Shown here piece after piece: positions 22,980 to 42,083 of a stretch of DNA of 64,000 nt. Each line of letters opens with the position of its first letter. The first letter of the stretch is position 1. Origin of the DNA: Candidatus Marinacidobacterales bacterium (GTDB taxonomy: Bacteria; Acidobacteriota; Vicinamibacteria; Marinacidobacterales; DATDRI01); assembly GCA_965226495.1 (NCBI GenBank), contig OZ245365.1:3232001-3296000 (forward strand). The letters run 5' to 3'. The position numbers were made by a program, and so were the translations under genes. The notes below the pieces were generated by a model that made no database searches, was not told the DNA's origin, and saw only the letters and a list, made by a program, of their open reading frames with translations.

Positions 22980-24353
22980 ATGTTCAGAATGGCTAGCAAA
23001 GAGCCGGGAAGCGCGAGCCTTCGCTTCTGTTACGCGTCCATCTTTTGGCTGATTGTGCCCGGCGTTTTCGGCTTGATCCTAGCCACTTTCTTGTATGCCC
23101 CGGCACTGGCCGATCACCTCCCGCTTTCCATCAAACCGTATTTGAGCTTCGGTCGCCTGAGACCGGCTCACGTGAACCTCGCGATCTTCGGTTGGCTCTC
23201 GCAGGCCTATTACGCCGGCATTCTCTTCATTCTCCCTCGCCTCCTTCGCACCGAGCTTTACAGCGAGCGCCTCGCCCACGTGAACTGGTGGCTTTGGAAT
23301 CTCATGGTCGTCGCCACCCTCATCACTCTTCCTATGGGACACACGCAAGGCCGCGAGTACGCGGAGATGATATGGCCGCTCGATCTGCTGTTCATTCTCA
23401 ACATCGTGCTGTTGGCGATCAACATCTGGGGAACCGTTGCACGTCGTCGCGAGCCCAAGATCTACGTGAGCGTCTGGAACTTCATGGCGGCAACGATGGT
23501 AATGGTCCCAATCTACGCGGTCGGCAACAAGATTTGGGATCCCTCCGGTGCGTACTACGGCATGAACGACAACATCGTGAACTACTTCTATGTTCACAAT
23601 CTCTTCAACGCCTGGTTCACGACCGCCGGTATCGGGCTGGCCTTGTACCTTCTACCGAAGCTCACGGGCAAGCCGCTCTACAGCCACCGGCTCGGCCTCT
23701 GGGGACTCTGGAGCGTCTGGACCGGACAACATCACCAACTCTACAGCCCGGCACCGGATTGGCTGGAGTACCTCACGATCGTCTTCAGCATCCTGGCAGC
23801 CGTGCCGACGACGGCGTTCATGGTCAACTTCTTCATGACCATGCGCACCCGCTGGCACGTCGCCGCTCAAGACGTCGCGCTCCGTTTCTTTGCAACCGGA
23901 GCGATCTTCTGGGGACTCACCTGCGTGCAAGGCATCTCCCACTCGTTCCGAACCTTTTCGATGGTCGTGCATTTTACAAACTGGGTCGTGGGACACTCGC
24001 ACCTCGCCTTTGTGGCGTCCTACAGTTTTTGGGCCTTCGCACTCATCTACCTGATCGTGCCAACGCTCACCGGCCGCAACATCTATAGCAAGAAACTGAT
24101 GGAGTGGCACTATTGGCTGACCACGCTAGGCATGTTGATCTTCATGATCTCGATGTGGGTGGCGGGGCTCATCCAAGGACAAAACTGGTCGTCCTATATG
24201 ATCCCGTTTCTGCAAACCGTGATATCGATGAAGCCTTATTTCGGGGCCCGCCTGATTGGGGGCGCGATCGCCGGCATCGGGATCGCTTGCTTCGCATGGA
24301 ATATCTGGCGAACGGCGCACAGCGACACCGCCGTCACAGAGGGTAGACAATGA
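22980..24353 (+). CDS. ccoN: cbb3-like (C-family) heme-copper oxidoreductase subunit I with divergent active site
   Basis: SFGRLRPAHVN, GREYAE, YVHN, GQHH and GHSH supply all six His ligands; about 12 TM helices. Confidence 0.85.
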   Translation: MFRMASKEPGSASLRFCYASIFWLIVPGVFGLILATFLYAPALADHLPLSIKPYLSFGRLRPAHVNLAIFGWLSQAYYAGILFILPRLLRTELYSERLAHVNWWLWNLMVVATLITLPMGHTQGREYAEMIWPLDLLFILNIVLLAINIWGTVARRREPKIYVSVWNFMAATMVMVPIYAVGNKIWDPSGAYYGMNDNIVNYFYVHNLFNAWFTTAGIGLALYLLPKLTGKPLYSHRLGLWGLWSVWTGQHHQLYSPAPDWLEYLTIVFSILAAVPTTAFMVNFFMTMRTRWHVAAQDVALRFFATGAIFWGLTCVQGISHSFRTFSMVVHFTNWVVGHSHLAFVASYSFWAFALIYLIVPTLTGRNIYSKKLMEWHYWLTTLGMLIFMISMWVAGLIQGQNWSSYMIPFLQTVISMKPYFGARLIGGAIAGIGIACFAWNIWRTAHSDTAVTEGRQ

Positions 24354-24835
24354 GACCTAACCTGGTCTACCTTGTCGGCGGCTCCCTGGTCAGCTTGTTG
24401 CTCGGGATTATCGTCACCATTATTATCCCTGCGCAGGAACCGATCGGGCCTTCGCAGCTGGCCAAGTCCTATTCCGAAAAGGAATTGAGGGGGCGTGATA
24501 TCTATTTACGTGAGGGGTGCCACTACTGCCATACCCAGCAGGTGCGCGAGCCCGAGTCGGATCGCGGGATGGTGCGCCAGCGCGGCGACATCGGGCCCGA
24601 ATCGGTGCCGGGAGACTTCTATTATCAGTCTCCGGTTTTCTGGGGCACTCTCCGCCAGGGCATGGACCTGGCCCATGTCGCCTCGCGGAAAGGGATCGGA
24701 GATAACGTGGGCTGGCACGAGCTTCACTTTAGAAACCCTCGAGCGGTGTCGCCGGGAACGGTCATGCCGTCCTACGACTATCTGTCCGCGGAAGAGATTC
24801 AGGCGCTCACCGCATATATGTTGACGCTGAGATAA
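24350..24835 (+). CDS. ccoO: cbb3-type oxidase monoheme subunit II
   Basis: GRDIYLREGCHYCHTQQVR, WGT.RQGMDL, PRAVSPGTVMPSY. Overlaps the ccoN stop (ATGA). Confidence 0.9.
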   Translation: MRPNLVYLVGGSLVSLLLGIIVTIIIPAQEPIGPSQLAKSYSEKELRGRDIYLREGCHYCHTQQVREPESDRGMVRQRGDIGPESVPGDFYYQSPVFWGTLRQGMDLAHVASRKGIGDNVGWHELHFRNPRAVSPGTVMPSYDYLSAEEIQALTAYMLTLR

Positions 24836-24839
24836 GTCT

Positions 24840-24992
24840 ATGGTCTTCCCCGCAACCTGGCTGGTGCTAGCGACAGTGGCTATCATCTTGGTGCTCTTCG
24901 GCCTCGGCTACTACTGGGCGCGCAGTAACGGGCAGTTGGACGACATCGAGGCGGCGAAGTACACCATGCTCGAAGACGACGAGTCTGAATGA
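24840..24992 (+). CDS. ccoS: cbb3-type oxidase assembly protein CcoS (50 aa, not in the ORF track)
   Basis: Hand translation MVFPATWLVLATVAIILVLFGLGYYWARSNGQLDDIEAAKYTMLEDDESE; WA..NGQ.DD.E motif. Confidence 0.8.
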   Translation: MVFPATWLVLATVAIILVLFGLGYYWARSNGQLDDIEAAKYTMLEDDESE

Positions 24993-25243
24993 TGAGCTCT
25001 GAAGGAGCACGGGAAGTGCCGCCGGGTCACGACGATTTCGGGGGTGAGATCCTGGTGGCCAACGGCAAACCGCCCCGCTGGGTCACGAAACTACCTTATG
25101 TCGCGATGGTCTGCGCACTCGGGTATTACGCGATGGTCGGGGCCGCCGACCCGGTCAACCTAGCGTTCGCGTCACTGTTCGTAATTTGGTTTATCTACAC
25201 TCCGATCGCCCAGAAGAAGGGCTGGTTCTTTATTCCGATGTGA
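24989..25243 (+). CDS. Small membrane protein resembling the CcoP N-terminus, with no heme c motif
   Basis: GHDDFGGEILVANGKPPRW resembles CcoP GHxWDGIxExxNPxPRW; two TM helices; translationally coupled to ccoS. Confidence 0.6.
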   Translation: MMSSEGAREVPPGHDDFGGEILVANGKPPRWVTKLPYVAMVCALGYYAMVGAADPVNLAFASLFVIWFIYTPIAQKKGWFFIPM

Positions 25244-25348
25244 CATGCCGAGGGGAGGTGTCATCGATCGACTAAGTTGAGCGACGTTCCTTAGTTTGAC
25301 CCATCACTTTTCACTTTCACATACCTATTGAAACTGGAGGGCAACAAA

Positions 25349-25783
25349 ATGGCGGACAGAGCCGAACAAGCAAACAAGTACATGGAAGATAAGATGTTTT
25401 TCACCCCCCGCATGTTCAAAGTAACCAACACGCTGGCGCCGGAAGTCGGGGAGCGTTTCGCCGATTTCTACGAGTCGGTGTGGGCCGACGGCAACCTGTC
25501 CCGCAAGATCAAAGAGCTGATGTTCGTCTCCATTGGCGTGGCCTATATGTCGCCGCGGTGCATCATCCACGTTCAGCCCGCCATCAAGGCCGGTGCGACG
25601 GACGGCGAGATCTTCGAGGCGGTGTCAGTCGGTATGCTGGCAGCCGGGTTCGTGCCTGGTGGACCAGGCATTCCCTACGCCTTCGAGTATGCCGCCAAGA
25701 CGTTGGACATTGCAGCCAAGATCCGCAAGGGCGAAGACTTCGAGTATCTCCCTGGCCCCAAGTTCGACAAGGGCGTCTACTAA
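25349..25783 (+). CDS. Carboxymuconolactone decarboxylase (CMD/AhpD-like) family protein
   Basis: DGNLSRKIKELMFVSIGV...CIIH...AIKAGATDGEIFEA; GGAGG RBS. Confidence 0.85.
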   Translation: MADRAEQANKYMEDKMFFTPRMFKVTNTLAPEVGERFADFYESVWADGNLSRKIKELMFVSIGVAYMSPRCIIHVQPAIKAGATDGEIFEAVSVGMLAAGFVPGGPGIPYAFEYAAKTLDIAAKIRKGEDFEYLPGPKFDKGVY

Positions 25784-25861
25784 GAACAACCGTCTCTGCG
25801 CAGACGGGGGTCGACAAACCTAGGGCTCCCGTCTGCCTTCTCTTCTAGGACAGAACAACAC

Positions 25862-26680
25862 ATGAGTGTGCAGGGGTTCCCGAATGACCGTCTGCTAGTG
25901 GGCACGGCATGGCTGGCCGACCAATTGAACGATGCCGATTTGCGCTTGGTGGAAGTGACTGCGCCCGGCGCCGGATACAAGTTCGGGCATGTCGCAGGCG
26001 CCGTCTATCTGAATGTCGACGATCTGTTGACGGGAAAAGCCACCGGAGTCGAGCGAACGGTGGGCCCCATCGAAGAAGTGGCCGTCGTCCTCGGCGGACT
26101 GGGCCTTTCCCGAGACAAGAAAATCGTCGTTTACGACGAGTGCGACGAACGCATCGGGGGAACCCGAGCCTCACAACTTTTTTGGCTCTTGGAGTACTTG
26201 GGCTGTGAGCAGGTGCACTTGCTGGAAGGCGGCATCGAACGTTGGCTCGCCGAAAACCGCCCCACGACGGGCGAGACGCCCGACGTTCAAAAGGCCACGT
26301 TTACTCCCGCGATTCGTGAAGAGCGTCTCGCGACCGCGGATTGGATCGTGGAGCACCTGGAGAATTCAGATGTATCGGTCATAGACGCGCGAGCACCCGA
26401 GGAATACGAGGACGGCCATATCCCAGGGGCCGCGAATCGGTCCTGGGACAAGACCTTAACGCGAAAAGCCTACCAAGCGTTTCGATCCGCCGAAGAGCTT
26501 AGAGGCGAGTTCGCCGAGTTGGGTGCAACCGAAGACAAAGAGGTTGTCGCCTACTGCATGACGGGCGCGCGCTCCTCTCACATCTACCTGACGCTACGTC
26601 TATTGGGTTACACTCGGGTCCGGAACTATGACGCGTCTTGGACGGAATGGGGGTCCAGACGGGACTTGCCCAAGGCCTGA
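25862..26680 (+). CDS. Two-domain rhodanese (thiosulfate/mercaptopyruvate sulfurtransferase)
   Basis: GHVAGA, DAR..EEY..GHIPGA, active loop YCMTGARS, YDASWTEWG. Confidence 0.9.
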   Translation: MSVQGFPNDRLLVGTAWLADQLNDADLRLVEVTAPGAGYKFGHVAGAVYLNVDDLLTGKATGVERTVGPIEEVAVVLGGLGLSRDKKIVVYDECDERIGGTRASQLFWLLEYLGCEQVHLLEGGIERWLAENRPTTGETPDVQKATFTPAIREERLATADWIVEHLENSDVSVIDARAPEEYEDGHIPGAANRSWDKTLTRKAYQAFRSAEELRGEFAELGATEDKEVVAYCMTGARSSHIYLTLRLLGYTRVRNYDASWTEWGSRRDLPKA

Positions 26681-26686
26681 AACAGC

Positions 26687-26713
26687 CCTGACAGGCCTGA
26701 CAGGCCTGACAGG
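26687..26713 (+). repeat. Tandem 9-mer CCTGACAGG x3
   Basis: Read directly in the intergenic sequence; each unit is palindromic around its centre. Confidence 0.8.
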
Positions 26714-26769
26714 GTGGACGCGTAACCGCGTTCCGAGGCCGGTAATTTCATTTTAGGAGGATTAGGAAA

Positions 26770-27942
26770 ATGGCAACCAGTCAACTACCGCTGTTCCCAG
26801 TTACCGTCGTGGGCAGCTGGCCAAGACCTCAGTATCTCTTGGACGCGCTCAGGAAGCGCCAAAAGGGGCAGTTGAGCTTCGAAGAGTTTCAGAAAGTCGC
26901 CGACAAAGCGGTGTTGGAGCAGCTACGCTACCAAGACGAGGCGGGTGTCGACATCGTGAGCGATGGCGAGCAACGCCGAGACAATTTCTACTCGTTCGTC
27001 GTGGAGAAGTTGGATGGCGTAGAGTTGATGACCTTGGCGGATCTCATGGATCACGTCGAGGACAAGGCGGGATTCGACTCCATCCTCCGCAGCATGGACG
27101 CTCCGGCCTTCGGTATCAAGAATCCCACTGTGACCGGAAAGATAAAACCCAAGATGTCGCTGGCGGTCGACGAGTACGAGTTCTTGAAGCAGCACACCGA
27201 CAAGCCCATCAAGATCCCTCTACCCGGCCCTTACATTCTAATCCGATCCATGTGGGTCAAGGGCGTCTCTGACAAGTTCTATCCCACTCAGGAAGATCTG
27301 GCCGTGGATATCGTCAAGATTCTGCGCGACGAGCTCATCGCCCTTCGTGATGCGGGCGTCGACTTCGTGCAATTCGACGAGCCGGTCCTTACCGACGTCG
27401 CTTTCAACCCAGCGGTGAAGGAACGTACTTTCATGTGCGCCTCGATGGCGGCGTCCTCAGGCGATCCGACTAAAGAGCTCCTGCTTGCAACGCGCATGAT
27501 GAACAGTATCGTCGACGGCGTCGATGGAATCCGCACCGGTGTTCACGTGTGCCGTGGCAACTGGAGCCGCAAGGACGAGGTGTTGCTCAAGGGAAGCTAT
27601 GAGCCGCTCGTCCCGACCATGATGGGAATGCATCTCGATCAGCTCGTCCTCGAGTACGCGACACCGCGCGCCGGCGAGCTGGCGGCCTTCTCACATCATC
27701 CCAAGGAAAAAGAGATCGGTTTGGGCGTCGTAAATCCTCGGACTGATGAGATGGAATCGCCGGACTCGGTAGTCGAACGGGTGAACGAAGCGCTGCAGTA
27801 CTTCAAACCCGAACAAATCTACCTCAACCCCGATTGCGGTTTTGGAACTTTCGCCGAGCGGCCCATGAATCCTGCCGACATCGCGGGCAAGAAACTCGCC
27901 ATTATCGGTGAGGCCGCCAAGAAGCTTCGCGCGAATCATTAA
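26770..27942 (+). CDS. MetE C-terminal-domain-only Zn thiol-alkylating enzyme (methionine synthase II / epoxyalkane:CoM transferase family)
   Basis: TVVGSWPRP, DIVSDGEQRR, VQFDEP; Zn ligands HVC(RGNW), LEY, NPDCGF. 390 aa with no N-terminal MetE half. Confidence 0.85.
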   Translation: MATSQLPLFPVTVVGSWPRPQYLLDALRKRQKGQLSFEEFQKVADKAVLEQLRYQDEAGVDIVSDGEQRRDNFYSFVVEKLDGVELMTLADLMDHVEDKAGFDSILRSMDAPAFGIKNPTVTGKIKPKMSLAVDEYEFLKQHTDKPIKIPLPGPYILIRSMWVKGVSDKFYPTQEDLAVDIVKILRDELIALRDAGVDFVQFDEPVLTDVAFNPAVKERTFMCASMAASSGDPTKELLLATRMMNSIVDGVDGIRTGVHVCRGNWSRKDEVLLKGSYEPLVPTMMGMHLDQLVLEYATPRAGELAAFSHHPKEKEIGLGVVNPRTDEMESPDSVVERVNEALQYFKPEQIYLNPDCGFGTFAERPMNPADIAGKKLAIIGEAAKKLRANH

Positions 27943-27960: not shown

Positions 27961-28488
27961 ATGTCTGAATCGAGCAAGATCAACGGACTGGATATAGAGG
28001 AGACGCGGGAGGCCATCAAGACCGTAAGCGCCGCGCCGGGGGCGTCGAATGCCCCCAAGAAATCACGGTGCAAATGGCTCACCGGTCTCAAATTCAAGAC
28101 CTACGTGCGGAACCACGTCTTTCTCGTGGACGAGCCGGCGCACCTCGCGGGCGAGGATGAAAGCCCTAACTCCATGGAGTACGTTCTGGGCGCCTATGCC
28201 GCTTGCCTCGCCACGGGGTTTGTTCTCAATGCCAGCCAAAAAGCGATCGAGATCCACAACCTCGAAGTGGTCGTAGACTCGACCCAAAACAACGTGTTCA
28301 CGTTTTTGGGTTTGGGCGGGGAAGGGCACGCCGGGTTCGACACCATTAATGCCAAGCTCTTCGTTCAGGCCGACGCGGACGAGGCCACGCTCAAGGACGT
28401 TTGGACCCAGACGGTCGACACCTCCCCGGTGCACAACTCTCTGGCTAGGCCCGTGACCATCAAACCCGACATTGAGATCGTCCCGTAA
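27961..28488 (+). CDS. OsmC family protein
   Basis: DEPAHLAGEDESPNSMEYVLGAYAACL; terminal TSPVHNSL. Confidence 0.85.
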   Translation: MSESSKINGLDIEETREAIKTVSAAPGASNAPKKSRCKWLTGLKFKTYVRNHVFLVDEPAHLAGEDESPNSMEYVLGAYAACLATGFVLNASQKAIEIHNLEVVVDSTQNNVFTFLGLGGEGHAGFDTINAKLFVQADADEATLKDVWTQTVDTSPVHNSLARPVTIKPDIEIVP

Positions 28489-28822
28489 GACCCAAGAAGA
28501 GCTAGGCGTCTTCTTCCTTCTTCGCGCTGGCCCGGAGCACTTTTGGCACCAAGTTGCCACCAGAGCAGAGCGGACGCTGTCCCTCTCGAGATCGCCGATT
28601 TGAAAAGTCGAACGGCAGACTCCTATAATCCGCCGAACGGCCACGCGGGTATATTTGTATATCCAGACCCACCAGACGCGGCATATCCCGGGGCAGGAAA
28701 CAACGGATCATGCCCAACACGAATAGTCTGAGTTACATGAACGAAGACACCCACGCTGCGATATCCAATACCTGGACCGGCTTGGATGTGCTATCGAATT
28801 ATCCAGATCTAGATACTTACTG

Positions 28823-29354
28823 TTCGGCGGGCATTGCTTGATGTACAAGACACTCAGCTTTCAGTATGCCGGGGCGCTAGATTGGGAGTATGACGAGACT
28901 GGGGAGCCGGTAACTCCGGGCGGCAGGGCGCTCACGGAGAGGATTGCTGCCTCTTTGACGTGCGAGACGGTACGGTCCGCGGCGGTCGAACAACACGAGT
29001 ACTACGGATGGGGTTTTACCAGCGAACTCGGACGAGATTCCTTCTACAACGTGCTTAATGCGGTGGACCCAGACGTCTTCTTCACGGTCAAAATGGAATG
29101 GTATCTAGCGAAGAAAACACTGTTTCGCTCCCCAGAGATAGCTTTGAAGCGATATTGCCAGATTCTGCGCGATGCTGTTTCCTCTCTCGACGGAGTCAGC
29201 GAGGTGAAGTGGGAGGAACAACGCCGTTGATTTGCGGGAGCCGCCGAACAATGCGTTGGAGTCGGACGGCGCCGAGGCTTCTTGGGCGCGTGAGATACTG
29301 CCGCAGGGGGGCGGTGTCGGCGGCGCTCCAGCCGCGCCGCCACTCAACGCACTG
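28823..29354 (+). mobile_element. Integron gene cassette 1
   Basis: Starts at G|TTCGGCGG (28822), which is complementary to CCGCCGAAC at the start of the attC at 29241. One ORF lies in between. Confidence 0.75.
28838..29230 (+). CDS. Hypothetical protein (cassette gene)
   Basis: 130-aa ORF that fills cassette 1. Confidence 0.7.
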   Translation: MMYKTLSFQYAGALDWEYDETGEPVTPGGRALTERIAASLTCETVRSAAVEQHEYYGWGFTSELGRDSFYNVLNAVDPDVFFTVKMEWYLAKKTLFRSPEIALKRYCQILRDAVSSLDGVSEVKWEEQRR

Positions 29355-29360
29355 TTATAC
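29243..29360 (+). other. attC site 1
   Basis: R'' GCCGAAC, L'' GTTGGAG, L' CTCAAC (extrahelical G), R' GTTATAC. Confidence 0.8.
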
Positions 29361-29594
29361 AGGCGATTTCAACGGAACCATCAAAGCTTTGCTGAGAATC
29401 CCGCCGGGGCCCAGATAAGTGGCCGTCGAGCGAAAGGACGCTCGAGGTATTTCCTAGTGCACAATGGGCACCGATCGTGCCATCAGCGCGTTAACTCCAT
29501 GTCTCACGACGTGATACGACAGCCCGACTGATACACAATCAGTAGGTGTGCAGCGTCGAGCTCCCGTGAATGTCGCTTACCGAATCGGGCGGCC

Positions 29595-31120
29595 TTAATC
29601 CTGGCCTGTCGAGAACGACAGCAACTCCTCCGGTTTTCTGGGAACGCCTCCCTTGATCACCCACTCGATGGCTCGAGCGTTCCGGACGTCCTCTAGCGGA
29701 TTGGCGCTCAAGACGACTAGATCTGCTAGCTTACCCGGCTCGATGCTGCCAATTTCATTGTCCACTCCCAAGGCGATAGCTCCCCCGTAGGTTGCCGCCA
29801 CCAGGACCTCGGCCGGGCTCAGACCCGCCTCCTGGAGGAACTGCATTTCGAGATGCGAGCCGATGCCGACCGGACCTGCGTCGGATCCGAGAGCAACGGT
29901 GACACCTCGGGCCTGAGCCTCGCGCGTGTTCTCTTGCAGGTGCTCCCACAACGTGGCTAGGGCCGGAGGCAGTCCGGGGAATCGAGAGGTCGCGCCGGAC
30001 GCAGCGTTCGCTCTTTGCTCGTACCGCGCCAGCTCACTGTCGGAGAGTCTCCTTTTGAAGTTCTCATCCGATAGGATGCGTTTCGCGTAGGCTTGCTGGT
30101 CTCCATTAGCAAGAATCACCAGGTGCGTCGGTGTCCAGACGATGTTTCGCACGCGCATCTCTTCCCACGTCGGAGGAATCAGCAGCTTAACCGAGCGCGG
30201 GGAACCGTACGGAGATTTGACAGGAAAATTAAGACTTGACCGTCCGGGGAATCGAGTCGCGCCGGACCAGCGTTCGCTCTTTTCGTACCGCGCCAGCTCC
30301 ATGTTCTCATCAGGAGTTTCGCGCTTGCTGGCTCCGGAATCACCAAGAACACGCGCATCTCTTCCCAGAGTTTCTCGTCCACCTCCGAGTCCATTGTTCC
30401 ATGCATCAAGGCGTTGGCTCCGGCAAGAACGGCCTCTCGAGTGTCGGCGAGCTGCGTGACATGAACATAGACCCTCATGTCCAATGTTCTAGCTTCATCG
30501 ACCAGGGCGGAAAAGACCTCTGCTCGAAGCCGCGGCACCTTCTTCGAACCCATCCAGAGGACACCGTCGTCCTGAATGATCTTGATCTGCCGGAATCCCT
30601 GGTCCTTGCATTTCCTAACCATCCGTCGGGCAGCGTCGGCCGTGTGCGGTTTGAAGAGCTCCAGTCCCGGCATGACATTCTGCGGAAACCCGCCGCTGAA
30701 AAACGGGCTCATGTGAAGGCGGGGAGAGAGAGTCTTGGGCGATTGCGATCGCGCTTCCAGCTGGCGGGGATCGTCCGGGAGAGACCCGGGCATCAAGTGG
30801 ATGGTGGTGAATCCCATGGCCAAATACGTTTGAAGCGCCTCCTCGGAGCTGGAGTGCGTGTGGACATCCACAAATCCCGGGACGACCCACTTTTGCTTCC
30901 CATCGATGACCCGCGCGCCCTCCGGTATCGTAATGCTCCCCTCACTGCCGACGGCGAGCACGCGGTCGCCTTCGAGGACGATGACCGCATCAGCCTGCAG
31001 CACCCCCGTCTTCCCATCGATCAAGTTCGTGGGCGAGATGACCACTCTTCGCGCCTGGCCGATCGCCAGGATAGCGGAAGCATGCGCGAGGAATAACACA
31101 AGAGCAAGGACCCTTTTCAT
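29595..31120 (-). pseudogene. Secreted amidohydrolase, interrupted by a 200-bp insertion (30168..30367); inverted gene of cassette 2
   Basis: PGFVDVHTH, YVHVT, LMHG, GSDAG, GSIEPGKLADLVVL. Removing 200 bp fuses DEKLWEEMRV to RNIVWTP in frame (about 441 aa). Confidence 0.8.
30166..30241 (+). mobile_element. 76-bp copy of the right end of the IS256 element
   Basis: Identical to 34115..34190, including the terminal IR. Confidence 0.9.
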
Positions 31121-31290
31121 GCAGCACCTTCCTAGTTTCATGCGGTGGCGCCGACCGCCCGGCCGACTCCGACCACCGCTCGTTCTAGCCTGGAATCTAG
31201 TCGTTCGACAGGTGGGATTCAAACGGCTTGGGTGTGCGGGATTGCGCCACCTCAGGGGAAGGCAAAGCTGGCAATGGTGAAGCCAGAGCT

Positions 31291-31396
31291 GTATAACAGC
31301 CGCTGGAGGCGACGGCCGACTTTTCCTGATTCAACGACCGAATCAGCTTTACGCTATCTTCAACGAAGTCGGCCGCAGCTCAGCTTTTCGTTAGGC
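31291..31396 (+). other. attC site 2
   Basis: R'' GTATAAC (exact complement of GTTATAC at 29354), L'' GCTGGAG, L' CTCAGC, inner stem CGGCCGACTT/AAGTCGGCCG, R' GTTAGGC. Confidence 0.8.
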
Positions 31397-31405
31397 AGTC
31401 GAAGA

Positions 31406-31816: not shown

Positions 31817-31861
31817 ATGCTTGTCGTGGCCGAGGAGGTCTGTAGTGTCCTGAGTCTTTGG

Positions 31862-32788: not shown

Positions 32789-32791
32789 GTT

Positions 32792-34190: not shown

Positions 34191-34268
34191 TTCATGTTGC
34201 ACTACCTCCCTGCAGCACTTAAAAGAAGACTAGTGTGTCACCTCTGTCCTGGGGTTTTACAGAGCGCC

Positions 34269-34372
34269 GTCTAACGAGCAGTTGCAGCAGACGAAGCGCG
34301 AGTATGATGCAGGGGCTGTCCAAGCTCTTACGTCATCGAGTCGCGCTTCGCGGCTGAACGGCCCTGCTATAC
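34269..34372 (+). other. attC site 3 (degenerate R')
   Basis: R'' GTCTAAC, L'' GTTGCAG, L' CTGAAC, inner stem CGAAGCGCGA/TCGCGCTTCG. R' reads GCTATAC instead of GTT. Confidence 0.7.
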
Positions 34373-35485
34373 CGCCCGACAGCAAGGGGTCGTGGGGGAT
34401 GCCAAAAGAGAGCCACCGCAATCTCCTTTGTCTGCCGTCGAATTCCCGCGCCCAACGTACCAGCCATCGCTAGCCCCTGGATCACGTGATCCAAGATTGG
34501 AAACCGCTCGCACGCTATAAGGCATTCCAGCATCTCGGGAAATCATGGCGCCGCCCACTCGCTGTGGGGTCGAAGAGATAGACGGCTTGCTCTTCGAACG
34601 TCCCTTCGAACTCGGCAGGGGCAACGGCTTTTCGATAACTCCTAATGGCCCCTCCCAAGTCAGTCGGTTGGGAGCCCGACCCTTGACCTTCAATCGCCCC
34701 TCGGTGATCGCGGCGTGACACACCGCGCAGACCGTGTGGAGATTCCAAGTCTCGTCGGGACCACCCCGAGCCCGCGGGATGATGTGGTTCGCACTCAAAG
34801 CAGTTCGATTGCTGCACCCAGGCCGGGTGCACTTCCAGCCGGCTCGCTCGGCGACCTTTCGCACGTAGCCGCCATCGGTCTCGGGTCCGTCTCCAAACGC
34901 CGGCGTTATTGCATACCCGCAAAGCGCCTCAGCGCACATGAGATCGAATACCTCGATGTCGCTCAAGGTCTTTCCCGCCAAACGCTCGAGCGCCTCTCTC
35001 GCCTGCTCCCACGCCTCGACTCGATCACCTTCGAGCATGAAGAAGAGAGATTTCCTCGTCGTCGGTGGCTGCTTTCTTTTGACTTCCTGTTCGAGCTGGC
35101 GATTGCTCATGTTCTTGCAACGGTCGAGCCACTTGGCTTCGGTCTTGGGTGTCGCGACTTTGACGACCTCTCGCGCCTTGGTCCAAGGGATGTCTCCTTT
35201 CTGGAAGGCCGCCTTTAATCGCGGGAGTTCTTCGAAACGTTCTGCCATGTTTAGCAGCGACGGCGTCTTGCGATCCTCGAAACCCAGTCGTTCGCGAGCG
35301 TAATCGACGGTCGAGGCGAAACCGTATTTCAGGTAGAGTTGCCGGTTCTCGACCTCCTGGAGGTAGAAGCACAAAACGGACTCCACCCGGCGGTGTACTC
35401 GAGCGGCGGAAACCAGGCGTCGATCGACCTCGCTCGGGGGAAGACCTTTGGTCATTTCAAGAACGACTTCGGCAGGCACGGACAT
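34367..35485 (-). CDS. DUF222-like plus HNH endonuclease
   Basis: YGFASTVDYARERLG, GDIPWTKARE; RAGWKCTRPGC...NHIIPRARGGPDETWNLHTVCAVCH. Confidence 0.8.
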   Translation of the reverse strand: MSVPAEVVLEMTKGLPPSEVDRRLVSAARVHRRVESVLCFYLQEVENRQLYLKYGFASTVDYARERLGFEDRKTPSLLNMAERFEELPRLKAAFQKGDIPWTKAREVVKVATPKTEAKWLDRCKNMSNRQLEQEVKRKQPPTTRKSLFFMLEGDRVEAWEQAREALERLAGKTLSDIEVFDLMCAEALCGYAITPAFGDGPETDGGYVRKVAERAGWKCTRPGCSNRTALSANHIIPRARGGPDETWNLHTVCAVCHAAITEGRLKVKGRAPNRLTWEGPLGVIEKPLPLPSSKGRSKSKPSISSTPQRVGGAMISRDAGMPYSVRAVSNLGSRDPGASDGWYVGRGNSTADKGDCGGSLLASPTTPCCRAV

Positions 35486-35536
35486 GGCACTTACTCCTTT
35501 TAAAATGAGTGGGTTGCTATGAAAACCCGATACTCG

Positions 35537-35565
35537 AATATAGGAGTATATTAGGTGAATGTCAA
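35537..35565 (-). promoter_or_regulatory. Near-consensus sigma70 promoter of the HNH gene
   Basis: Minus strand TTGACA-17 bp-TATATT, followed by an AAGGAG RBS. Confidence 0.75.
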
Positions 35566-35882
35566 GTCATGTCATACGCACAATCTAACTAATTAGAAAC
35601 AAAGGACTTAGACAGAAAAACCAAAGGGTCGAAGGACCTGGCCGGTGGCTCAACTCATTGATAAAACAGTACTTACGCGCCCGGGCGCGGGCAAAAGACG
35701 TCTCTTCCCTTTCGAGGCTGCCCCCGTCGCCGACCCCGGTCCGTTCCGTCGTCCTCGTCTAGCGTCTGACGCCCGGCCTCGTTTCGGCAACCGACGCCCG
35801 GCAAACTTCCCTCGTGGCAAGCTTAGCAGGCATCCCTTTTTGGCGACTTACTGGCTCAATCCAGTAAAATAGTCAGTCGACC

Positions 35883-36785
35883 ATGAAGAACCTAGTTCCC
35901 CTGCCGTATCGCCGGGTCTCGGTCCAGCCCTACGAACGCGAGATGACGGAAAAGCCCATCCGCGCGCACCTGATGGGCCGGGAGACGTATCGGCGGACGG
36001 ACTTCATCGTCCTGAGGAAGGGCCCAGACAGTAAGGAGACGGCGGTCGTCGAGGTCACGGCCCCCGATAGGGAGAGTCTCTTCAGCCCCATCGATTCGGT
36101 CCGGATCGTGGCCCTGCCCGAAACCTGTGTCTTCGTCGAAGCCCCGGAGACCGATCCGGCCAACCCCTCCTCCCTGGCAGCCAAGGCGCACGAGCTCGGG
36201 ATCGAGGGCGAGCAAACGCTGGTGGTGCGCGGCAAGTACGAGCACGTCGGCTTCATTCACCACCCCGATCCCATGGTCATCCGTGTCGTAGAAGTTTCTC
36301 CGCCGGAGCCGCCCAAGCTCTTCGACCTCGCCCAACGCGTGCTCAGCTATGCGGAGCTTCCCCCAATACGGTTGGAGCTCACCCGCATCGACCTGAACGA
36401 GCTCGCCGAAGGCCACTCCCCTTCCGCCTTTCTGGTACCTTGCCGCTCCGGAGGACTGGATGGGCTCAAGGCACCGGTGTACTTTCTGGACGAGCGTCCG
36501 GCACGGCTCGATTGGACGATGATCGGGTGCGAGCGCAGTCTACAGTTCCATCGTCACTACTACGGCGACGAGCCGCCCCGCATAGAGCTCTGCCCGCGCC
36601 AATTGGCCGGCGAGAACGACGCTCCAACGCTACTCAAGTGTTGCCTCCTCGAGTTCGATTCCGAGCTCGACGAAAATGTTGCGATAGCACCCTGGGGCGC
36701 TGATCTGGCGATGGTGGAGAAGGCCATTCGTCAACTCGTGGCGGTCGCGGAGCGCGCACCCGCCGAAGCTACCAAAGCTACGTGA
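35883..36785 (+). CDS. Cys-rich hypothetical protein heading the CoM-biosynthesis-like operon (xcbA position)
   Basis: 300 aa; PCRSGG, IGCERS, LCPR, KCC. Co-oriented 18 bp before comA. The XcbA link is positional only. Confidence 0.7.
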   Translation: MKNLVPLPYRRVSVQPYEREMTEKPIRAHLMGRETYRRTDFIVLRKGPDSKETAVVEVTAPDRESLFSPIDSVRIVALPETCVFVEAPETDPANPSSLAAKAHELGIEGEQTLVVRGKYEHVGFIHHPDPMVIRVVEVSPPEPPKLFDLAQRVLSYAELPPIRLELTRIDLNELAEGHSPSAFLVPCRSGGLDGLKAPVYFLDERPARLDWTMIGCERSLQFHRHYYGDEPPRIELCPRQLAGENDAPTLLKCCLLEFDSELDENVAIAPWGADLAMVEKAIRQLVAVAERAPAEATKAT

Positions 36786-36803: not shown

Positions 36804-37640
36804 ATGACCAAAGCTTGGACTTCCATCTTTCCTGAGCTGGCGGCCCGCTCGCGGAAACCACGAACTCGCGGCGTGACGATGCTGCTGGACAAGTGCCAGG
36901 GCCCCGCGGCCACCGAAGATCTCCTGGCCATGTCGGGGGACTACATCGACTTTTGGAAGATGTCTTACGGAACGTCGGCTCTCCTCGACGACGGTTTCCT
37001 ACGTCGCAAGATTGAAACGATCGGCCAGCACGACATCATCGTCCACCCTGGCGGCACATTGGCGGAATACGGGATCATGCGAGGTCTCACCCGAGAGTAC
37101 GTCCGACACTGCCAGGCTCTCGGTTTCACCGGTGTCGAGATCTCGGATGGCACGATCGAAATGTCGCCCAGTGTGCGCCGGGATGCCATTCGGTACGCCC
37201 GGGATCTCGGTTTAACCGTCATCACCGAGGTCGGTAAGAAAGACCCCAACGAGCAACCTGCGGTCGAGCTGCTAGCGGAACAAGCGCTAGGCGACTTCGA
37301 TGCGGGCGCCTCCTGGGTCATCGTCGACGCGCGTGAGTCGGGTCGAGGAGTGGGGGTGTTCGACGCGGATGGCACCGTCCGCGAGGAAGCTGTCGATGCT
37401 ATGGTCGATATCTTGGAAGGCCACCTCGATAAGATGATCTGGGAGACGCCGCTCAAGAAACAGCAGGAGTACTTCATCATCCGCTTCGGCCCGCATGTCG
37501 GACTCGGCAACATCCAACCGCGCGACGTCCTGGCACTTGAATCGATGCGCACCGGTATCCGCTTCGAGACTTTCCACGCCTTTGCCGAGAAGCTCCTCGA
37601 AGAGGCCCAGCAGGCTCGAGACGCGGCGGACGACGGATAA
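36804..37640 (+). CDS. comA: Phosphosulfolactate synthase (ComA/XcbB)
   Basis: KPRTRGVTMLLDK, PGGTLAE, VEISDG, TEVGKKD, ARESG, GLGNI. Confidence 0.9.
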   Translation: MTKAWTSIFPELAARSRKPRTRGVTMLLDKCQGPAATEDLLAMSGDYIDFWKMSYGTSALLDDGFLRRKIETIGQHDIIVHPGGTLAEYGIMRGLTREYVRHCQALGFTGVEISDGTIEMSPSVRRDAIRYARDLGLTVITEVGKKDPNEQPAVELLAEQALGDFDAGASWVIVDARESGRGVGVFDADGTVREEAVDAMVDILEGHLDKMIWETPLKKQQEYFIIRFGPHVGLGNIQPRDVLALESMRTGIRFETFHAFAEKLLEEAQQARDAADDG

Positions 37641-37651
37641 CGAGAGAACCC

Positions 37652-39247
37652 ATGGTTTTTGGCGACCCCCCCTCCGACGCCCTCATCCGAACCGCCTATG
37701 CGCGCGAGGCGGGCGACACGGCTATCCTTTATAAGGGGATGAGCCTGGCCGATATCGCCCACGTCGTCGGCTTGGTGGAGTCCAAGATCATTCCCCGCCA
37801 GGCGGGAGGCGAGCTCTTGTGGGCATTGCTAGAAATCCATCCTTCACCCCCGATGGATTTTGCCGTCGATCCCGGCCGCGGTGATTCCTACTCGAACCGC
37901 GAGGCTTACTTGAGAATGCTCACTCCCTCGGCCGGATGGCTGTCGGCAGGCCGGGCGCGGCGCGAGTCCACGACGACCGGTTATCGAATCGCCGTCCGAG
38001 AGCGGTTGCTGAGCTTGGCCGGAGCACTCGGCGACTGCGCCGCGGCGGCACTCGAGCAATGTGACGCGCATCGAACGACTCTCTTCCCCGACTACACGTA
38101 CCTTCAGCCGGCTCAACCCACCGTGTTCGCGCATTACCTCCTGACGTTCGTCTACCCCATGCTCCGTGATCTAGAGCGTCTCGGTGGCGCCTTCGCGCGT
38201 ACCAATGTCTCGCCGGCCGGCTGCGGCAGCGTGAACGGAAGCCGGCTACCCTTGGACCGCGAGGCGCTTTCCCAAATGCTCGGCTTCGACCGCCCCATCC
38301 CGCACGCACGCGACGCCATGTGGCAGGCGGACGGCCCGATCGAAAACGCGGCACTCATCACCGCGGTGCTCATCAACCTCGACCGCCTGGCCGAAGACCT
38401 GCAGATCTTTTCGACATCCGAGTTCGGGCTCGTCGAGTTGGCCGACCGCCATGCGCGCCCGAGCGTGATCATGCCGCAGAAGAAAAACCCGTACTCGCTC
38501 GCCTATCTCCGAGGGCTTGCCGGGGTTTCCATCGGCACCTTGGCTGCGATGGCTGCGGTCGCCAAGACGCCTTCCGGACAGATCGACAATCGCATGTTCG
38601 CTTATGGCGACGTACCGCGGGCGCTCGATCAAGCGACGGACGCAACACGGTTGATGGCCGACGTGCTCCGAGGGCTCACTGTGAAGACGGATGTCGCTGA
38701 AAATCGAGCCGCACAAGACTTCCTCGGTGCGACCGACTTGGCGGAAGTCATCATGATCGAGTGCGAGATCGACTACAAAACCGCGCACCGTATCGTAGCC
38801 CGAGCCATTCGGGAGGCCCTCGAATCAAACGAAGTAGGCGAATCGGCGCTAGCCATCGAACGACTGGAAGCCGCCGCCGAAGCCACCATCGGAAAAAAAC
38901 TCGGCCTCTCGAAGAAAAGAATTCGCGAGGTGCTCGACCCGGCGAGTATCGTCGCCACGCGCACCGGTATCGGAGGCGCCGCGAGCGAATCGGTGAGCGA
39001 GATGATCGCCGCATGCAGAAATGGCCTGAACGAAAATGAAGCGTGGCGCCTGGAGACGGGAAGGAAACTCGTGGAGGCCGAAACACGATTGGGAATGAAG
39101 GCCACACTACTGAAGATCGTTCCCGCCGAGCCCGCTGAGAAAGACGGCTCGCCTGAATCGCAGCAAGCCGAAACCAGTTCTTGGGAAAAGGAGTTCGAAG
39201 ATCTCCCCAAGATGCCTCCCGGGCGCCGCCGATTTCCAGCCGAATGA
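37652..39247 (+). CDS. Argininosuccinate-lyase-like protein (XcbC-like)
   Basis: AGRARRE, DYTYLQPAQP, SVIMPQKKNP; non-canonical catalytic residues. Confidence 0.8.
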   Translation: MVFGDPPSDALIRTAYAREAGDTAILYKGMSLADIAHVVGLVESKIIPRQAGGELLWALLEIHPSPPMDFAVDPGRGDSYSNREAYLRMLTPSAGWLSAGRARRESTTTGYRIAVRERLLSLAGALGDCAAAALEQCDAHRTTLFPDYTYLQPAQPTVFAHYLLTFVYPMLRDLERLGGAFARTNVSPAGCGSVNGSRLPLDREALSQMLGFDRPIPHARDAMWQADGPIENAALITAVLINLDRLAEDLQIFSTSEFGLVELADRHARPSVIMPQKKNPYSLAYLRGLAGVSIGTLAAMAAVAKTPSGQIDNRMFAYGDVPRALDQATDATRLMADVLRGLTVKTDVAENRAAQDFLGATDLAEVIMIECEIDYKTAHRIVARAIREALESNEVGESALAIERLEAAAEATIGKKLGLSKKRIREVLDPASIVATRTGIGGAASESVSEMIAACRNGLNENEAWRLETGRKLVEAETRLGMKATLLKIVPAEPAEKDGSPESQQAETSSWEKEFEDLPKMPPGRRRFPAE

Positions 39248-39271
39248 GCGCTCGAGTCAAATCTTAATTTT

Positions 39272-40663
39272 ATGCCATCTCACATCTCCGATTCGCTGAT
39301 CTACCGGAGCTCATGGGGCACCGAGGAAACGCGTGCGATATTCGACGACGAGCCCCGAACCCGCGCTTGGCTCGAGATCCTGGCCGTGCTGGCGGAAAGC
39401 CAAGCGGAAGTAGGTCTCATCCCTGCCGGTGATGCCAAGAAAGTAGCGCGCGCTTGCCGAGAGATGACGCTCGACACCGAGTTCTTCGAGGAGGTCCGGA
39501 AGGGTTTCGAGGAGACCAATCACACCACGCTCGGCCTCATTCGCGCCGTCCAACGCCGTTGCCCCGACGGCTCGGGCGAATGGGTCTACTACGGTGCCAC
39601 CGTACAAGACGTCGTCGACACCTGGACCATGATGACGGTCGCGCAAGTATGGTCCATCGCGTTCCGGGAGCTGAAAGCGCTCGAAGAGAATCTCCTTAGG
39701 CTCGCGGAGACTCACAAAGATACGGTAATGCCCGGTCGTACGCACGGCCAGCCCGGACTCCCCATCACCTTTGGTTTCAAGGCGGCAGTCTGGGCGAGCG
39801 AGACCCGACGCCACATCGCGCGCCTCAAAGACATTAGAAGTCGCATCGGAGTGGGTCAGCTCGTCGGCGGTGTAGGCAGCATGTCCTCCTTGGGTCCGCA
39901 GGCTTTCACGTTGCAAGAGAAGTTCTGTTCTCGCCTAGGGCTTCGACCGTCGGATATCTCATGGACCACCGCGCGCGACGTCTTTGTAGAATGGTTCCAG
40001 CTGCTAACCCTCATCTCCGGTACCGCAGACAAAATGGGGCATGAGATCTACAACCTGCAGCGTCCCGAGATCGGTGAGGTGACCGAAGGTTTCGTACCGG
40101 GAACGGTGGGGAGCATCACGATGCCGCACAAGCGCAACCCCGAAATCGCGGAGCACCTGGGCACGCTGGCGAGAGTAATTCGTCACAACACGGCGCTCCT
40201 GTCAGAATCTCAAGTTCACGACCACGAGCGGGACGGGCGAGCTTGGAAGTCGGAGTGGGCGGTTCTGGCCGAGACATCGATGGCGGCGGCAAAGCTTCTC
40301 GAGTTGACCAACACGATGATCCAACATCTCGACGTCCACGCCGACCGAGCGCTCGCCAATCTGGAAGCGAGCAAGGGCTTCGTGCTGTCGGAAGCCGTCA
40401 TGCTGAAGCTAGCGGAGCACGTTGGCAAGCAAAGCGCTCACACATTAATGTACGAGACCGCGATGAAGGCGCATGAGGCAGATCGTCCGCTAAAGGACGC
40501 CGTCTTAGAAAATGATGCCATCCGCAAGCACCTGTCCGCGGAGACCATCGAGGCTCTTTTCGACTACCGGCGACATACAGGCTTCTGTAGCGAGCAAGTC
40601 GATCGGGTGCTGGCGCGAGCCAAGAAGGAGAGGGAGAGGGAGAGGGAGAGCGACTCGAAATGA
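39272..40663 (+). CDS. Adenylosuccinate-lyase-like protein (XcbD-like)
   Basis: YGATVQD, GRTHGQ..PITFGFK, GSITMPHKRNPE, HDHERDG. Confidence 0.8.
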   Translation: MPSHISDSLIYRSSWGTEETRAIFDDEPRTRAWLEILAVLAESQAEVGLIPAGDAKKVARACREMTLDTEFFEEVRKGFEETNHTTLGLIRAVQRRCPDGSGEWVYYGATVQDVVDTWTMMTVAQVWSIAFRELKALEENLLRLAETHKDTVMPGRTHGQPGLPITFGFKAAVWASETRRHIARLKDIRSRIGVGQLVGGVGSMSSLGPQAFTLQEKFCSRLGLRPSDISWTTARDVFVEWFQLLTLISGTADKMGHEIYNLQRPEIGEVTEGFVPGTVGSITMPHKRNPEIAEHLGTLARVIRHNTALLSESQVHDHERDGRAWKSEWAVLAETSMAAAKLLELTNTMIQHLDVHADRALANLEASKGFVLSEAVMLKLAEHVGKQSAHTLMYETAMKAHEADRPLKDAVLENDAIRKHLSAETIEALFDYRRHTGFCSEQVDRVLARAKKERERERESDSK

Positions 40664-41073
40664 AACCCTGTTTCTACATCGGGTTGGCACTGATTCTATT
40701 CACGTTGGGAGGGTGTGGCAACGGAGAAGGCACCAAGAGTGGCGAAACCAACATCAAACCCCTCCCCACCGGCAACCCGACAGACGGAGAAAGCGTCTTC
40801 TTGGGCACGTGTATCAAATGCCACGGCAAAGATGCGACCGGGATCGAAGGTTCAGGAACCAATCTGACCATCAGCGAGTTCGTCAAAGCTCATACTGATG
40901 CCGAGTTGGTGGAGTACATCAAGACCGGACGCGCGATGAACGACGCGCTCAACACGACGGGGATCGCGATGCCCCCGTACGGCGCCAATCCAATGCTAAC
41001 CGATCAGGATCTCGCCGACGTCGTGGCTTACTTACGAGCCGTTCAGCGTGCACCCGATTCACCGACGAACTGA
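40660..41073 (+). CDS. Lipoprotein monoheme cytochrome c
   Basis: Lipobox LGGC, CIKCH, distal MPP. ATGA overlap with the xcbD-like gene. Confidence 0.85.
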   Translation: MKPCFYIGLALILFTLGGCGNGEGTKSGETNIKPLPTGNPTDGESVFLGTCIKCHGKDATGIEGSGTNLTISEFVKAHTDAELVEYIKTGRAMNDALNTTGIAMPPYGANPMLTDQDLADVVAYLRAVQRAPDSPTN

Positions 41074-41087
41074 GGAAAAACATACCC

Positions 41088-42083
41088 ATGTCGACTCCCA
41101 CTCGTTTCGAGCTAGGCATTTTTCCCACACCTCTCGTCGAGGCCTCGCGCTTATCGCAAGCCCTCGAGGGTCCACGCATCCTTATCAAGCGCGACGACCT
41201 CACGGGTTTCGGCTTCGGTGGCAACAAAGTACGTGGACTCGAGTATTCCATCGCGGACGCCATCGCGCAGAAAACCGATGTCGTCGTCACCGGAGCGGGC
41301 CCCCAATCGAACCACATCCGCGCCACCGCGGCCGCGGCGCGAGCGGCGGGGCTCGATGTGGTCGCCGTCATGCACGGTGACCGGCCCGCCGAGACGCAGG
41401 GCAATTTTCTTCTCGATCAATGGCTAGATGTCGAGATCCGTTTCACTAACGATCCCGACCGCAGCCTCTTAGATCAGAAGATCGAGGAAGTCGCCGAGGA
41501 GCTCCGGCAATCGGGGCGACGACCGTATGTCATTCCGCGGGGCGGTTCTTCGGGACTCAGTGCCTGCGGTTACGTGCAGTGTGCCCGTGAAATGGGGGAG
41601 CAGCTCGTAGACCGCGGCGCCAGACCCCACTGGCTGGTCATCGCAACCGGGGGCGGTGGCACGCATGCGGGTCTCCTTGCCGGTTCGAAGATTTACGATG
41701 CACCGTATCGCATTCTCGGCGTCACGGTGAGCCGTCCGCCGGAGGAGTGCGAGGAACGCATCGGACGCCTGGCGCGTGAGGCGGCGAAGCTCGTCCGGCC
41801 TCAAGGTGATCCTATCCAGATCGCTCCCGACGACATCTCTGTCCGTGACGGCTTCATCGGCGAGGGGTACGGCATTCCCTCGCCGGAAGGCATCGAAGCC
41901 ATCCGCCTGCTAAGCCGGACAGAAGGAATGTTCTTGGATCCCGTCTATACCGGCAAGGCCATGGCCGGCCTTATTGGTGAGATCCGAGCGGGGCGCATTA
42001 GGAAGGGCGAGACGGTCGTCTTCGTTCACACCGGAGGAGAGCCTGCCCTCTTTGCCTACCCGGAGATCGCAACGCGTTCATGA
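41088..42083 (+). CDS. PLP-dependent D-cysteine-desulfhydrase-like protein (XcbE-like)
   Basis: KRDDLTG..GGNKVR, QSNH, DPVYTGK, HTGG. Confidence 0.85.
   Translation: MSTPTRFELGIFPTPLVEASRLSQALEGPRILIKRDDLTGFGFGGNKVRGLEYSIADAIAQKTDVVVTGAGPQSNHIRATAAAARAAGLDVVAVMHGDRPAETQGNFLLDQWLDVEIRFTNDPDRSLLDQKIEEVAEELRQSGRRPYVIPRGGSSGLSACGYVQCAREMGEQLVDRGARPHWLVIATGGGGTHAGLLAGSKIYDAPYRILGVTVSRPPEECEERIGRLAREAAKLVRPQGDPIQIAPDDISVRDGFIGEGYGIPSPEGIEAIRLLSRTEGMFLDPVYTGKAMAGLIGEIRAGRIRKGETVVFVHTGGEPALFAYPEIATRS

Follow-up and report, generated by a model that had tools for sequence, protein, structure and literature searches.

A genomic island that joins coenzyme M biosynthesis genes to a tyrosine-less heme-copper enzyme in Candidatus Marinacidobacterales and Anaerolineae

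We analysed a 64,000-nucleotide stretch of contig OZ245365.1 (assembly GCA_965226495.1, positions 3,232,001 to 3,296,000 of the forward strand) from a Candidatus Marinacidobacterales bacterium of the Acidobacteriota, referred to below as the window. It holds two blocks of genes, at 22980-28488 and 35883-42083, which an earlier note made from the sequence alone had read as the separated parts of one ancestral and undescribed locus. A listing of the open reading frames (ORFs), combined with Pfam and NCBIfam scans, placed every gene named in that note on the plus strand, at the coordinates given below. Comparison with related genomes revealed that the two blocks are the halves of one horizontally mobile 13-gene island, which is split here by a 7.4-kb pile-up of insertions. 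The island has the order ccoN-ccoO-orf84-cmd-rhd-metE-osmC-xcbA-xcbB-xcbC-xcbD-cytc-xcbE, in which ccoN, ccoO and metE denote genes that are only similar to their namesakes.

The left block opens with the gene for a predicted catalytic subunit of a C-family heme-copper enzyme (CcoN-like, 22980..24353, +; Pfam COX1, 278 bits). Its ORF opens with a TTG at 22926, and the likely start is the ATG at 22980 or 22989. The protein scores 297.8 bits against the ccoN equivalog TIGR00780, below the cut-off of 583. With a 4-nt overlap follows a CcoO-like mono-heme cytochrome c subunit of 161 residues (24350..24835, +; FixO, 101.7 bits), which carries a single CXXCH motif at residue 57. The next gene, orf84 (24989..25243, +), encodes a conserved 84-residue protein with two hydrophobic stretches, for which the Pfam and NCBIfam scans returned no match. 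Its orthologs follow CcoO in related loci (28 sequences were aligned), and we regard it as a candidate small subunit of the heme-copper enzyme.

Downstream lie the genes for a CMD/AhpD-family protein (25328..25783, +; PF02627, 36.9 bits), a two-domain rhodanese, i.e., a sulfurtransferase (25862..26680, +; PF00581, 121 bits over two stretches), a 390-residue MetE-like zinc thiol alkyl/methyltransferase comprising the catalytic domain only (26770..27942, +; PF01717, 113.8 bits), and an OsmC-like protein (27961..28488, +; PF02566, 58.8 bits). The best NCBIfam match of the rhodanese is 3-mercaptopyruvate sulfurtransferase (124.6 bits, below the cut-off of 250), and the MetE-like protein reaches 204 bits against the archaeal-type methionine synthase NF003317, for which the cut-off is 406. 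The alignments reveal one invariant Cys apiece in the CMD, OsmC and rhodanese proteins: the only Cys of the CMD protein (SPRC..H, across 23 sequences), the Cys of ACLATGF in OsmC, where TSPV seems to take the place of the second Ohr Cys, and the catalytic Cys of the active-site loop YC.TG.RS in the C-terminal rhodanese domain (YCMTGARS here). Textbook AhpD (CxxC) and Ohr/OsmC peroxidases use two Cys residues. The single-Cys CMD and OsmC proteins would fit a need for an external small thiol, or a role as persulfide carriers.

The right block corresponds, by its profile matches and gene order, to xcbABCDE, the coenzyme M (CoM) pathway already described from bacteria, into which a cytochrome c gene has been inserted, so that the proposal of an undescribed system does not hold for this half. 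The pathway was worked out in Xanthobacter autotrophicus Py2, where the last step of CoM synthesis is ascribed to XcbA, a [2Fe-2S] reductase (Wu et al., 2022; PMC9457059). In the window, xcbA encodes a 300-residue DUF7714 protein (35883..36785, +; NF052538, 443.2 bits, cut-off 150; PF24830, 284 bits). It is followed by xcbB, the comA gene for phosphosulfolactate synthase (36804..37640, +; TIGR03849, 297 bits, cut-off 280; PF02679, 270.5 bits), by an XcbC-like enzyme of the aspartase/fumarase superfamily, presumably eliminating phosphate (37652..39247, +; NF052535, 565.2 bits, the best match by far and slightly below the cut-off of 575), and by xcbD for 3-sulfopropionylcysteine synthase (39272..40663, +; NF052536, 650.2 bits, cut-off 600). 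The last gene encodes an XcbE-like pyridoxal phosphate enzyme (41088..42083, +; NF052537, 399.9 bits, cut-off 450), whose NF052537 score exceeds that of CuyA (334.6 bits). In the nearest relative, a gene for a di-haem cytochrome c peroxidase (CCP_MauG, L003:16172-17254) stands directly after xcbE; in the window, this place is occupied by an unrelated minus-strand ORF.

Between xcbD and xcbE resides the gene for a 137-residue lipoprotein, a mono-heme cytochrome c (40660..41073, +; PF13442, PF00034) with the lipobox LGGC (Cys19) and one CIKCH motif, which overlaps xcbD by 4 nt. The gene occupies the same position in L003, L004, L092, L108 and L127. As the earlier note had observed, no ccoP gene was found after ccoO, and the CoM operon carries a membrane-anchored cytochrome c. 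This lipoprotein is the only cytochrome c besides CcoO, encoded 16 kb away in the window and about 9 kb away in uninterrupted relatives, and is a candidate electron donor of the CcoNO-like enzyme.

The suspicion that the oxidase is non-canonical was well founded. The closest solved structures of the CcoN-like protein are cbb3 oxidases (243 bits to Pseudomonas stutzeri CcoN, 3mk7_A), compared with 24.3 bits to cNOR (3o0r_B), and the six His ligands of heme b, heme b3 and CuB (H82, H224, H269, H270, H357 and H359) are invariant in 28 sequences. The cross-link Tyr, which we take to be Tyr251 in P. stutzeri numbering, is replaced by Ser263 in helix VII, six residues before the HH pair. None of the 120 nearest database homologs (58–100% identity) has a Tyr at this position (Ser in 102, Gly in 14, Thr in 4). 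Outgroup C-type enzymes at 41% identity retain it within FYIWTGAHH; the clade has a 5-residue deletion and reads LWSVWTGQHH. New polar residues flank the CuB histidines (HNLFN and GQHHQ). Public sources name the members of the clade cbb3-type subunit I; by its active-site residues, the left block holds what appears to be a new Tyr-less branch of the C-family heme-copper enzymes. We rejected membership in cNOR, given the low score to 3o0r_B and Asn228 instead of Glu. The window genome encodes one other heme-copper enzyme, which belongs to the A-family by score. Loss of the active-site Tyr has been taken as a mark of non-O2 chemistry, and for a C-branch family near cNOR, termed “N2O red”, reduction of N2O has been suggested (Murali et al., 2024; PMC11214002).

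That both blocks stem from one ancestral locus is supported by their homologs, which co-localise in Acidobacteriota as well as in Chloroflexota; the earlier note had named their failure to do so in any other genome as the finding that would speak against a common origin. As it had also anticipated, osmC abuts the 300-residue gene, now xcbA, in relatives, with gaps of 4–6 nt in L005, L091, L092 and L108 and of 78 nt in L004; the blocks adjoin each other in L004 and L005. The complete 13-gene order recurs in L003, L004 and L092, L108 follows it until the contig end cuts xcbE, and L005, L090 and L091 are partial copies. Scanning species-representative genomes for XcbA yielded 77 loci, the nearest of which belong to metagenome-assembled genomes (MAGs) of Candidatus Marinacidobacterales and Vicinamibacteria (Acidobacteriota). 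CcoN of the Tyr-less clade lies within 10 kb in 6 of the 77 loci. It was present in all five Anaerolineales genomes tested; in two of these, it lies on the xcb contig, immediately upstream. Rearranged forms occur in Anaerolineae (Chloroflexota), with the orders Rhod-MetE-OsmC-XcbA (L009), CcoN-CcoO-orf84-CMD-XcbA (L013) and CcoN-CcoO-CMD-XcbA-XcbD-XcbE-Rhod-MetE-OsmC (L075). A 35% XcbA homolog is located on a contig of a Thermoplasmata archaeon MAG (L079:10001-10861).

The linkage holds from the CcoN side as well as from the xcbA side, in agreement with the co-occurrence that the neighbourhood search had been proposed to look for. A reverse search, scanning metagenomes from CcoN, gave 36 loci, and the clade CcoN is now represented by 50 loci in all. 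Over these 50, CcoO follows CcoN in 34 of 36 loci that have at least 700 nt downstream, and CMD is present in 17 of 23 that have at least 2.5 kb. The xcb genes were found in 13 of 18 loci with at least 5 kb downstream of CcoN, the other five having the corrinoid set described below or Rhod-MetE-OsmC, and in all four with at least 12 kb. Among 301 genomes of the window’s class, six have the CcoN clade and five XcbA, and all five are within the six. In two of these genomes, of 9–10 Mb and from one genus (G085, locus L127; G109, locus L128, the sixth genome with CcoN), both halves are present as decayed copies, with a truncated CcoN, with xcbC and xcbD frameshifted or in pieces, and with none of the middle genes; G109 has also lost xcbA. 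Among 301 Anaerolineae genomes, the clade CcoN (at least 62% identity) is found in four and XcbA in seven, with both in three, on one contig. The two blocks belong together far beyond chance.

One Anaerolineae-type variant is instructive for the direction of the dependence. In G489 (L129; G489:C108:1-18000), a sulfonate-type ABC importer separates orf84 from CMD in the enzyme module, at the place where xcb would be expected, and the module continues with CMD-Rhod-MetE-OsmC. Genes for sulfite reductase (cysI) and PAPS reductase (cysH) flank the module, and Rieske, cytochrome b and multiheme cytochrome c genes come after it; ComA, XcbA and XcbD were sought in the G489 assembly and not found. Because G489 combines the enzyme with a sulfonate importer, while xcb often occurs without the enzyme, we infer that the dependence is one-way: the enzyme clade goes with a supply of CoM or sulfonate, and not the reverse. 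CcoN, the MetE-like protein and XcbA are 72–78% identical between Acidobacteriota and Anaerolineales, and in a quick tree the acidobacterial XcbA nests in an Anaerolineales clade (Shimodaira-Hasegawa approximate likelihood-ratio test, SH-aLRT, 95), apart from 60 sequences linked to EaCoMT, the epoxyalkane:CoM transferase. Taken with the cross-phylum identity, the nesting suggests that the island was transferred as one piece. As far as the searched literature shows, the linkage of the CoM pathway with the Tyr-less enzyme is new: no paper that connects xcb to a heme-copper enzyme turned up, and the supplementary datasets of PMC11214002, which lay outside the search, may list the clade.

The insertion at the osmC/xcbA junction spans 7,394 bp (28489..35882), as delimited by the scans and by comparison with relatives. 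Directly downstream of osmC lies a 240-bp repeat (28589-28827), of which the genome has three further copies with 79–84% identity; one low-depth contig joint (28824 to 32791) begins at the end of this repeat. The Pfam scan identified a minus-strand amidohydrolase gene (29595-31222), split by a 200-bp fragment (30150-30349) that contains 79 nt of an IS256 end and lies between 18-bp direct repeats. An IS481-family element of 952 bp (31841-32792; 3 copies in the genome), an IS256-family element of ~1.4 kb (about 32792-34193; nine further near-full-length copies in the genome), a minus-strand HNH/DUF222 gene found by Pfam (34367-35485) and two small ORFs make up the rest. The 200-bp fragment is absent from contigs of the DNA runs X1, X16 and X18, which stem from other samples, and the IS256 copy (32789-34195) is absent from some contigs of the same runs, which marks both as recent and polymorphic insertions, the IS256 copy being polymorphic in natural populations. 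The nearest relative, L003, shares only the HNH part of the insertion (81% nucleotide identity); at this junction it carries a separate IS110 insertion. Scans for promoters and terminators yielded 9 and 20 hits against shuffled expectations of 5.6 and 18.3, respectively; being near chance, they were not used. Further away, 10–14 kb downstream of the island, the window encodes, close to a histidine kinase and an ECF sigma factor, a cytochrome P460-domain protein (52541-53746) and a truncated globin (56191-56727), two protein families with links to NO and hydroxylamine chemistry.

We propose that the island is a CoM supply-and-use unit for thiol/sulfur redox chemistry with a two-electron reductase, a reading to which we assign a probability of roughly 40%. 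The rhodanese would split thiosulfate or a persulfide into sulfite, the substrate of XcbB, and sulfane sulfur, and XcbA-E would make CoM. The CMD and OsmC proteins, with one Cys each, could use CoM as the external small thiol against hydroperoxides or persulfides. The MetE-like zinc enzyme would alkylate or methylate a thiol, which, judging by its motifs, may be of the amino-acid type rather than CoM. Electrons would reach the CcoNO-like enzyme via the lipoprotein cytochrome c, the gene of which is coupled to xcbD at the level of translation. Without the His-Tyr cofactor, this enzyme would presumably reduce a small oxidant (NO, H2O2 or partially reduced O2) by two electrons, rather than work as a normal four-electron oxidase.

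Several observations weigh against this proposal. Its support comes from sequence and gene context, and the biochemical steps are deduced from these. XcbC and XcbE score below their NCBIfam cut-offs. CMD is missing in 6 of the 23 loci with sufficient downstream sequence (L093, L094, L115, L122 and the two decayed copies), the loci often come from related populations, so that the counts overstate independence, and the quick XcbA tree is compatible with no more than about two origins of this linkage. In G567 (L132), TusA-DsrE is directly followed by CMD, the corrinoid set and xcb, with no heme-copper enzyme, and elsewhere xcb without the enzyme is the rule, 49 of the 77 loci carrying an EaCoMT-type gene instead. 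The invariant W259, W262 and W265 near the active site could in principle replace the Tyr, and the enzyme may thus reduce O2. A role in denitrification was considered; the window genome has no NirK above cut-off and no NirS, and a respiratory source of NO is not evident. Transcription offers a weak hint: in one metatranscriptome library, short contigs with 0–1 differences fall on the orf84-cmd junction, cmd and xcbC. This evidence consists of contigs only and could reflect DNA carry-over; uncovered parts of the window and differences in contig depth were also seen, and neither was taken as evidence.

Alternatively, CoM could serve as an alkyl acceptor, as in alkene-oxidising bacteria and methanogens. 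The MetE-like protein would then replace EaCoMT and conjugate CoM with an epoxide, methyl halide or methyl-corrinoid. The small hydrophobic substrate would be made or consumed by the heme-copper enzyme, and a corrinoid set in Anaerolineales would add methyl-CoM. The MetE-like gene indeed lies upstream of xcbA, in the place of the EaCoMT-type genes of the 49 loci mentioned above, and the zinc motif H-x-C ... C is kept (HVCRGN, NPDCGFG). The corrinoid set consists of genes for three URO-D proteins, a corrinoid protein, a RACo activase and a TrmB regulator, located between CMD and xcbA in Anaerolineales xcb loci (L014, 1511-9392 and 11717-12862; L016, L104, L105, L112, L132 and L133), with an MtrH-like gene wedged between xcbB and xcbC. 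By its family matches, we consider it a methanogen-like methyl-transfer set inside a bacterial CoM operon, even though the best NCBIfam matches of the URO-D proteins, MtaA/CmuA and methylcobalamin:CoM methyltransferase, score below the family cut-offs. The motifs of the MetE-like clade argue in the other direction. The clade keeps the MetE-type GSWPRP, DGEQRRDN and DEP, whereas all EaCoMT-type proteins beside other xcb genes have GNYPNP and DGRxxGDN. Lacking the latter, and with 24% identity to Xanthobacter XecA, the MetE-like protein was rejected as an epoxyalkane:CoM transferase. The idea of the earlier note that this MetE-fold enzyme could use CoM finds no residue-level support, and CoM is not supported as its likely substrate.

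The same MetE-type motifs are found outside any CoM context, in a 57% paralog of the window genome (L126:8205-11801, i.e., G000:C1:4182205-4185801, minus strand) and in a 41% homolog of Paracoccus ferrooxidans pFER4 (L125:4881-11571). The paralog neighbours a short OsmC-like ORF, an acyl-CoA-dehydrogenase-like gene and a sulfonate/phosphonate (NMT1)-type binding protein. Neither a corrinoid methyltransferase set nor a close homolog of 2-KPCC or EaCoMT is encoded in the window genome. Taken together, we consider it unlikely that the island serves as an alkyl or methyl carrier system. Separately, eight Burkholderiales xcb loci (L025, L026, L029, L030, L035, L036, L037 and L043) have a second MetE-like class upstream of xcbA with the motifs VSAFPRP, TDGAQYYEWEAPG and HVCYGS, alongside an EaCoMT-type copy in L030, L035 and L043.

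Sulfur metabolism would also account for part of the gene content. Here, the left block would be a sulfur relay with its own terminal enzyme for the oxidation of sulfane sulfur or sulfite, or for sulfur assimilation, to which CoM synthesis became attached via a common pool of sulfite and cysteine. A TusA-DsrE fusion stands directly upstream of CcoN in Chloroflexota-type loci, and separate TusA and DsrE2 genes lie beside CcoN in L013, L100 and L123. In L100, a Chloroflexota metagenome contig (L100:234-9038, minus strand), a set comprising TusA, two DsrE, HdrC-, HdrB- and HdrA-like proteins, a fused HdrC/B-like protein and EtfAB is divergent beside the TusA-DsrE-CcoN-...-xcb cluster and has an sHdr-like appearance. 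The sulfite and PAPS reductases, the sulfonate-type importer and the Rieske/cytochrome b/cytochrome c set of L129 fit the same explanation, as does the Paracoccus MetE-like homolog, which is fused to an N-terminal TusA domain within a TusA-DsrE-hyp-hyp-MetE-SelA-TrxB cluster opposite a cysteine desulfurase. However, we sought sHdr genes in the window genome and the other loci and found none beyond L100; the window genome has the rhodanese only, and no sulfur-oxidising enzyme is conserved across the loci. The translational coupling of the cytochrome c gene to xcbD and the joint decay of both halves would also be left unexplained, and we judge this explanation to be about as improbable as an alkyl carrier.

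More doubtful still is an ordinary high-affinity oxidase, in which CcoNO would work as a cbb3-type enzyme at low O2 or shield the O2-sensitive Fe-S cluster of XcbA or the corrinoid proteins, by analogy to fixNOQP, which accompanies nitrogen fixation. The cbb3 oxidases as closest structures, the retention of all six His ligands and the public naming of the clade are in line with such a role, as are the HisKA_3/GerE two-component systems beside some loci, one of them with a GAF domain, and a Usp gene beside another. Against it stand the Tyr that is missing throughout the clade, yet kept in the 41% outgroup, the lack of CcoP, a TIGR00780 score of about half the cut-off, and Xanthobacter, which makes CoM aerobically without such an enzyme. 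Finally, that the genes merely co-travel on a genomic island with no functional link is very improbable despite their patchy distribution, the clearly horizontal spread and the insertion hot spot at the osmC/xcbA junction here and in L003, considering that the linkage outlasts rearrangement (L013, L069, L075, L100, L107 and L129) and spans two phyla, that gaps of 4–6 nt separate osmC and xcbA, that a cytochrome c gene resides inside the xcb operon, and that both halves decay together.

A bolder reading would make the Tyr-less C-type enzyme a new catalytic class dependent on CoM or sulfane sulfur, with CoM serving aerobic Acidobacteriota and Chloroflexota as a cofactor of respiration or detoxification, and with the Anaerolineales island adding methyl-CoM via corrinoid methyltransferases. 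A small thiol or persulfide might give the electron and proton that normally come from the Tyr, or a TusA/DsrE/rhodanese relay might build a sulfur-bearing active site. We regard this reading as speculative and rather improbable; if it were true, the Anaerolineales island would represent the first bacterial methyl-CoM metabolism, a question that these variants make directly testable. To our knowledge, bacterial CoM is known solely from alkene and epoxide metabolism. A CoM operon that is tied across two phyla to quite different genes, with no epoxide pathway, implies another physiological role and points to an undescribed use of CoM in bacteria. The clade as a whole is without the residue that O2 reduction requires, which makes it a candidate for a new branch of the oxidase/NO-reductase superfamily, and its gene neighbourhood offers a clue to what the enzyme does.

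Compared with known systems, the right block is closest to the pXAUT01 cluster of Xanthobacter, which has the same five families in the same order A-B-C-D-E, with identities of 63 (XcbA, to Xaut_5051), 47, 44, 50 and 49%. The window cluster differs by the extra lipoprotein cytochrome c gene between xcbD and xcbE, by having no genes for alkene monooxygenase, EaCoMT, 2-KPCC or hydroxypropyl-CoM dehydrogenase nearby, and by its chromosomal location on a 6.34-Mb single contig of an acidobacterial host. The MetE-like protein has the fold of the MetE catalytic domain, the H-x-C...C zinc motif and the position upstream of xcbA in common with EaCoMT (XecA/EtnE), but differs in its substrate-pocket motifs, which are MetE-type, and in sharing just 24% of its residues. 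With the Ohr/OsmC and AhpD thiol peroxidases, the window proteins have the OsmC and CMD Pfam domains in common, but they keep one Cys each where those enzymes use two.

The heme-copper enzyme resembles cbb3 CcoNOQP (P. stutzeri, 3mk7) in the CcoN fold, the six His ligands and a mono-heme CcoO. It differs in the replacement of Tyr by Ser with a 5-residue deletion, the polar residues by CuB, the missing CcoP and the short CcoO of 161 residues. In the cNOR family, the fourth residue after the first CuB His is a Glu ligand; the window enzyme has Asn228 there and scores only 24.3 bits against NorB. Loss of the Tyr is common to the window clade and to the Tyr-less families cNOR, qNOR, NOD, “N2O red”, eNOR, sNOR, gNOR and nNOR, as these are described in PMC11214002. 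From “N2O red”, which is close to cNOR by that paper’s description rather than by comparison of sequences, the window clade is set apart by its closeness to the true cbb3 enzymes.

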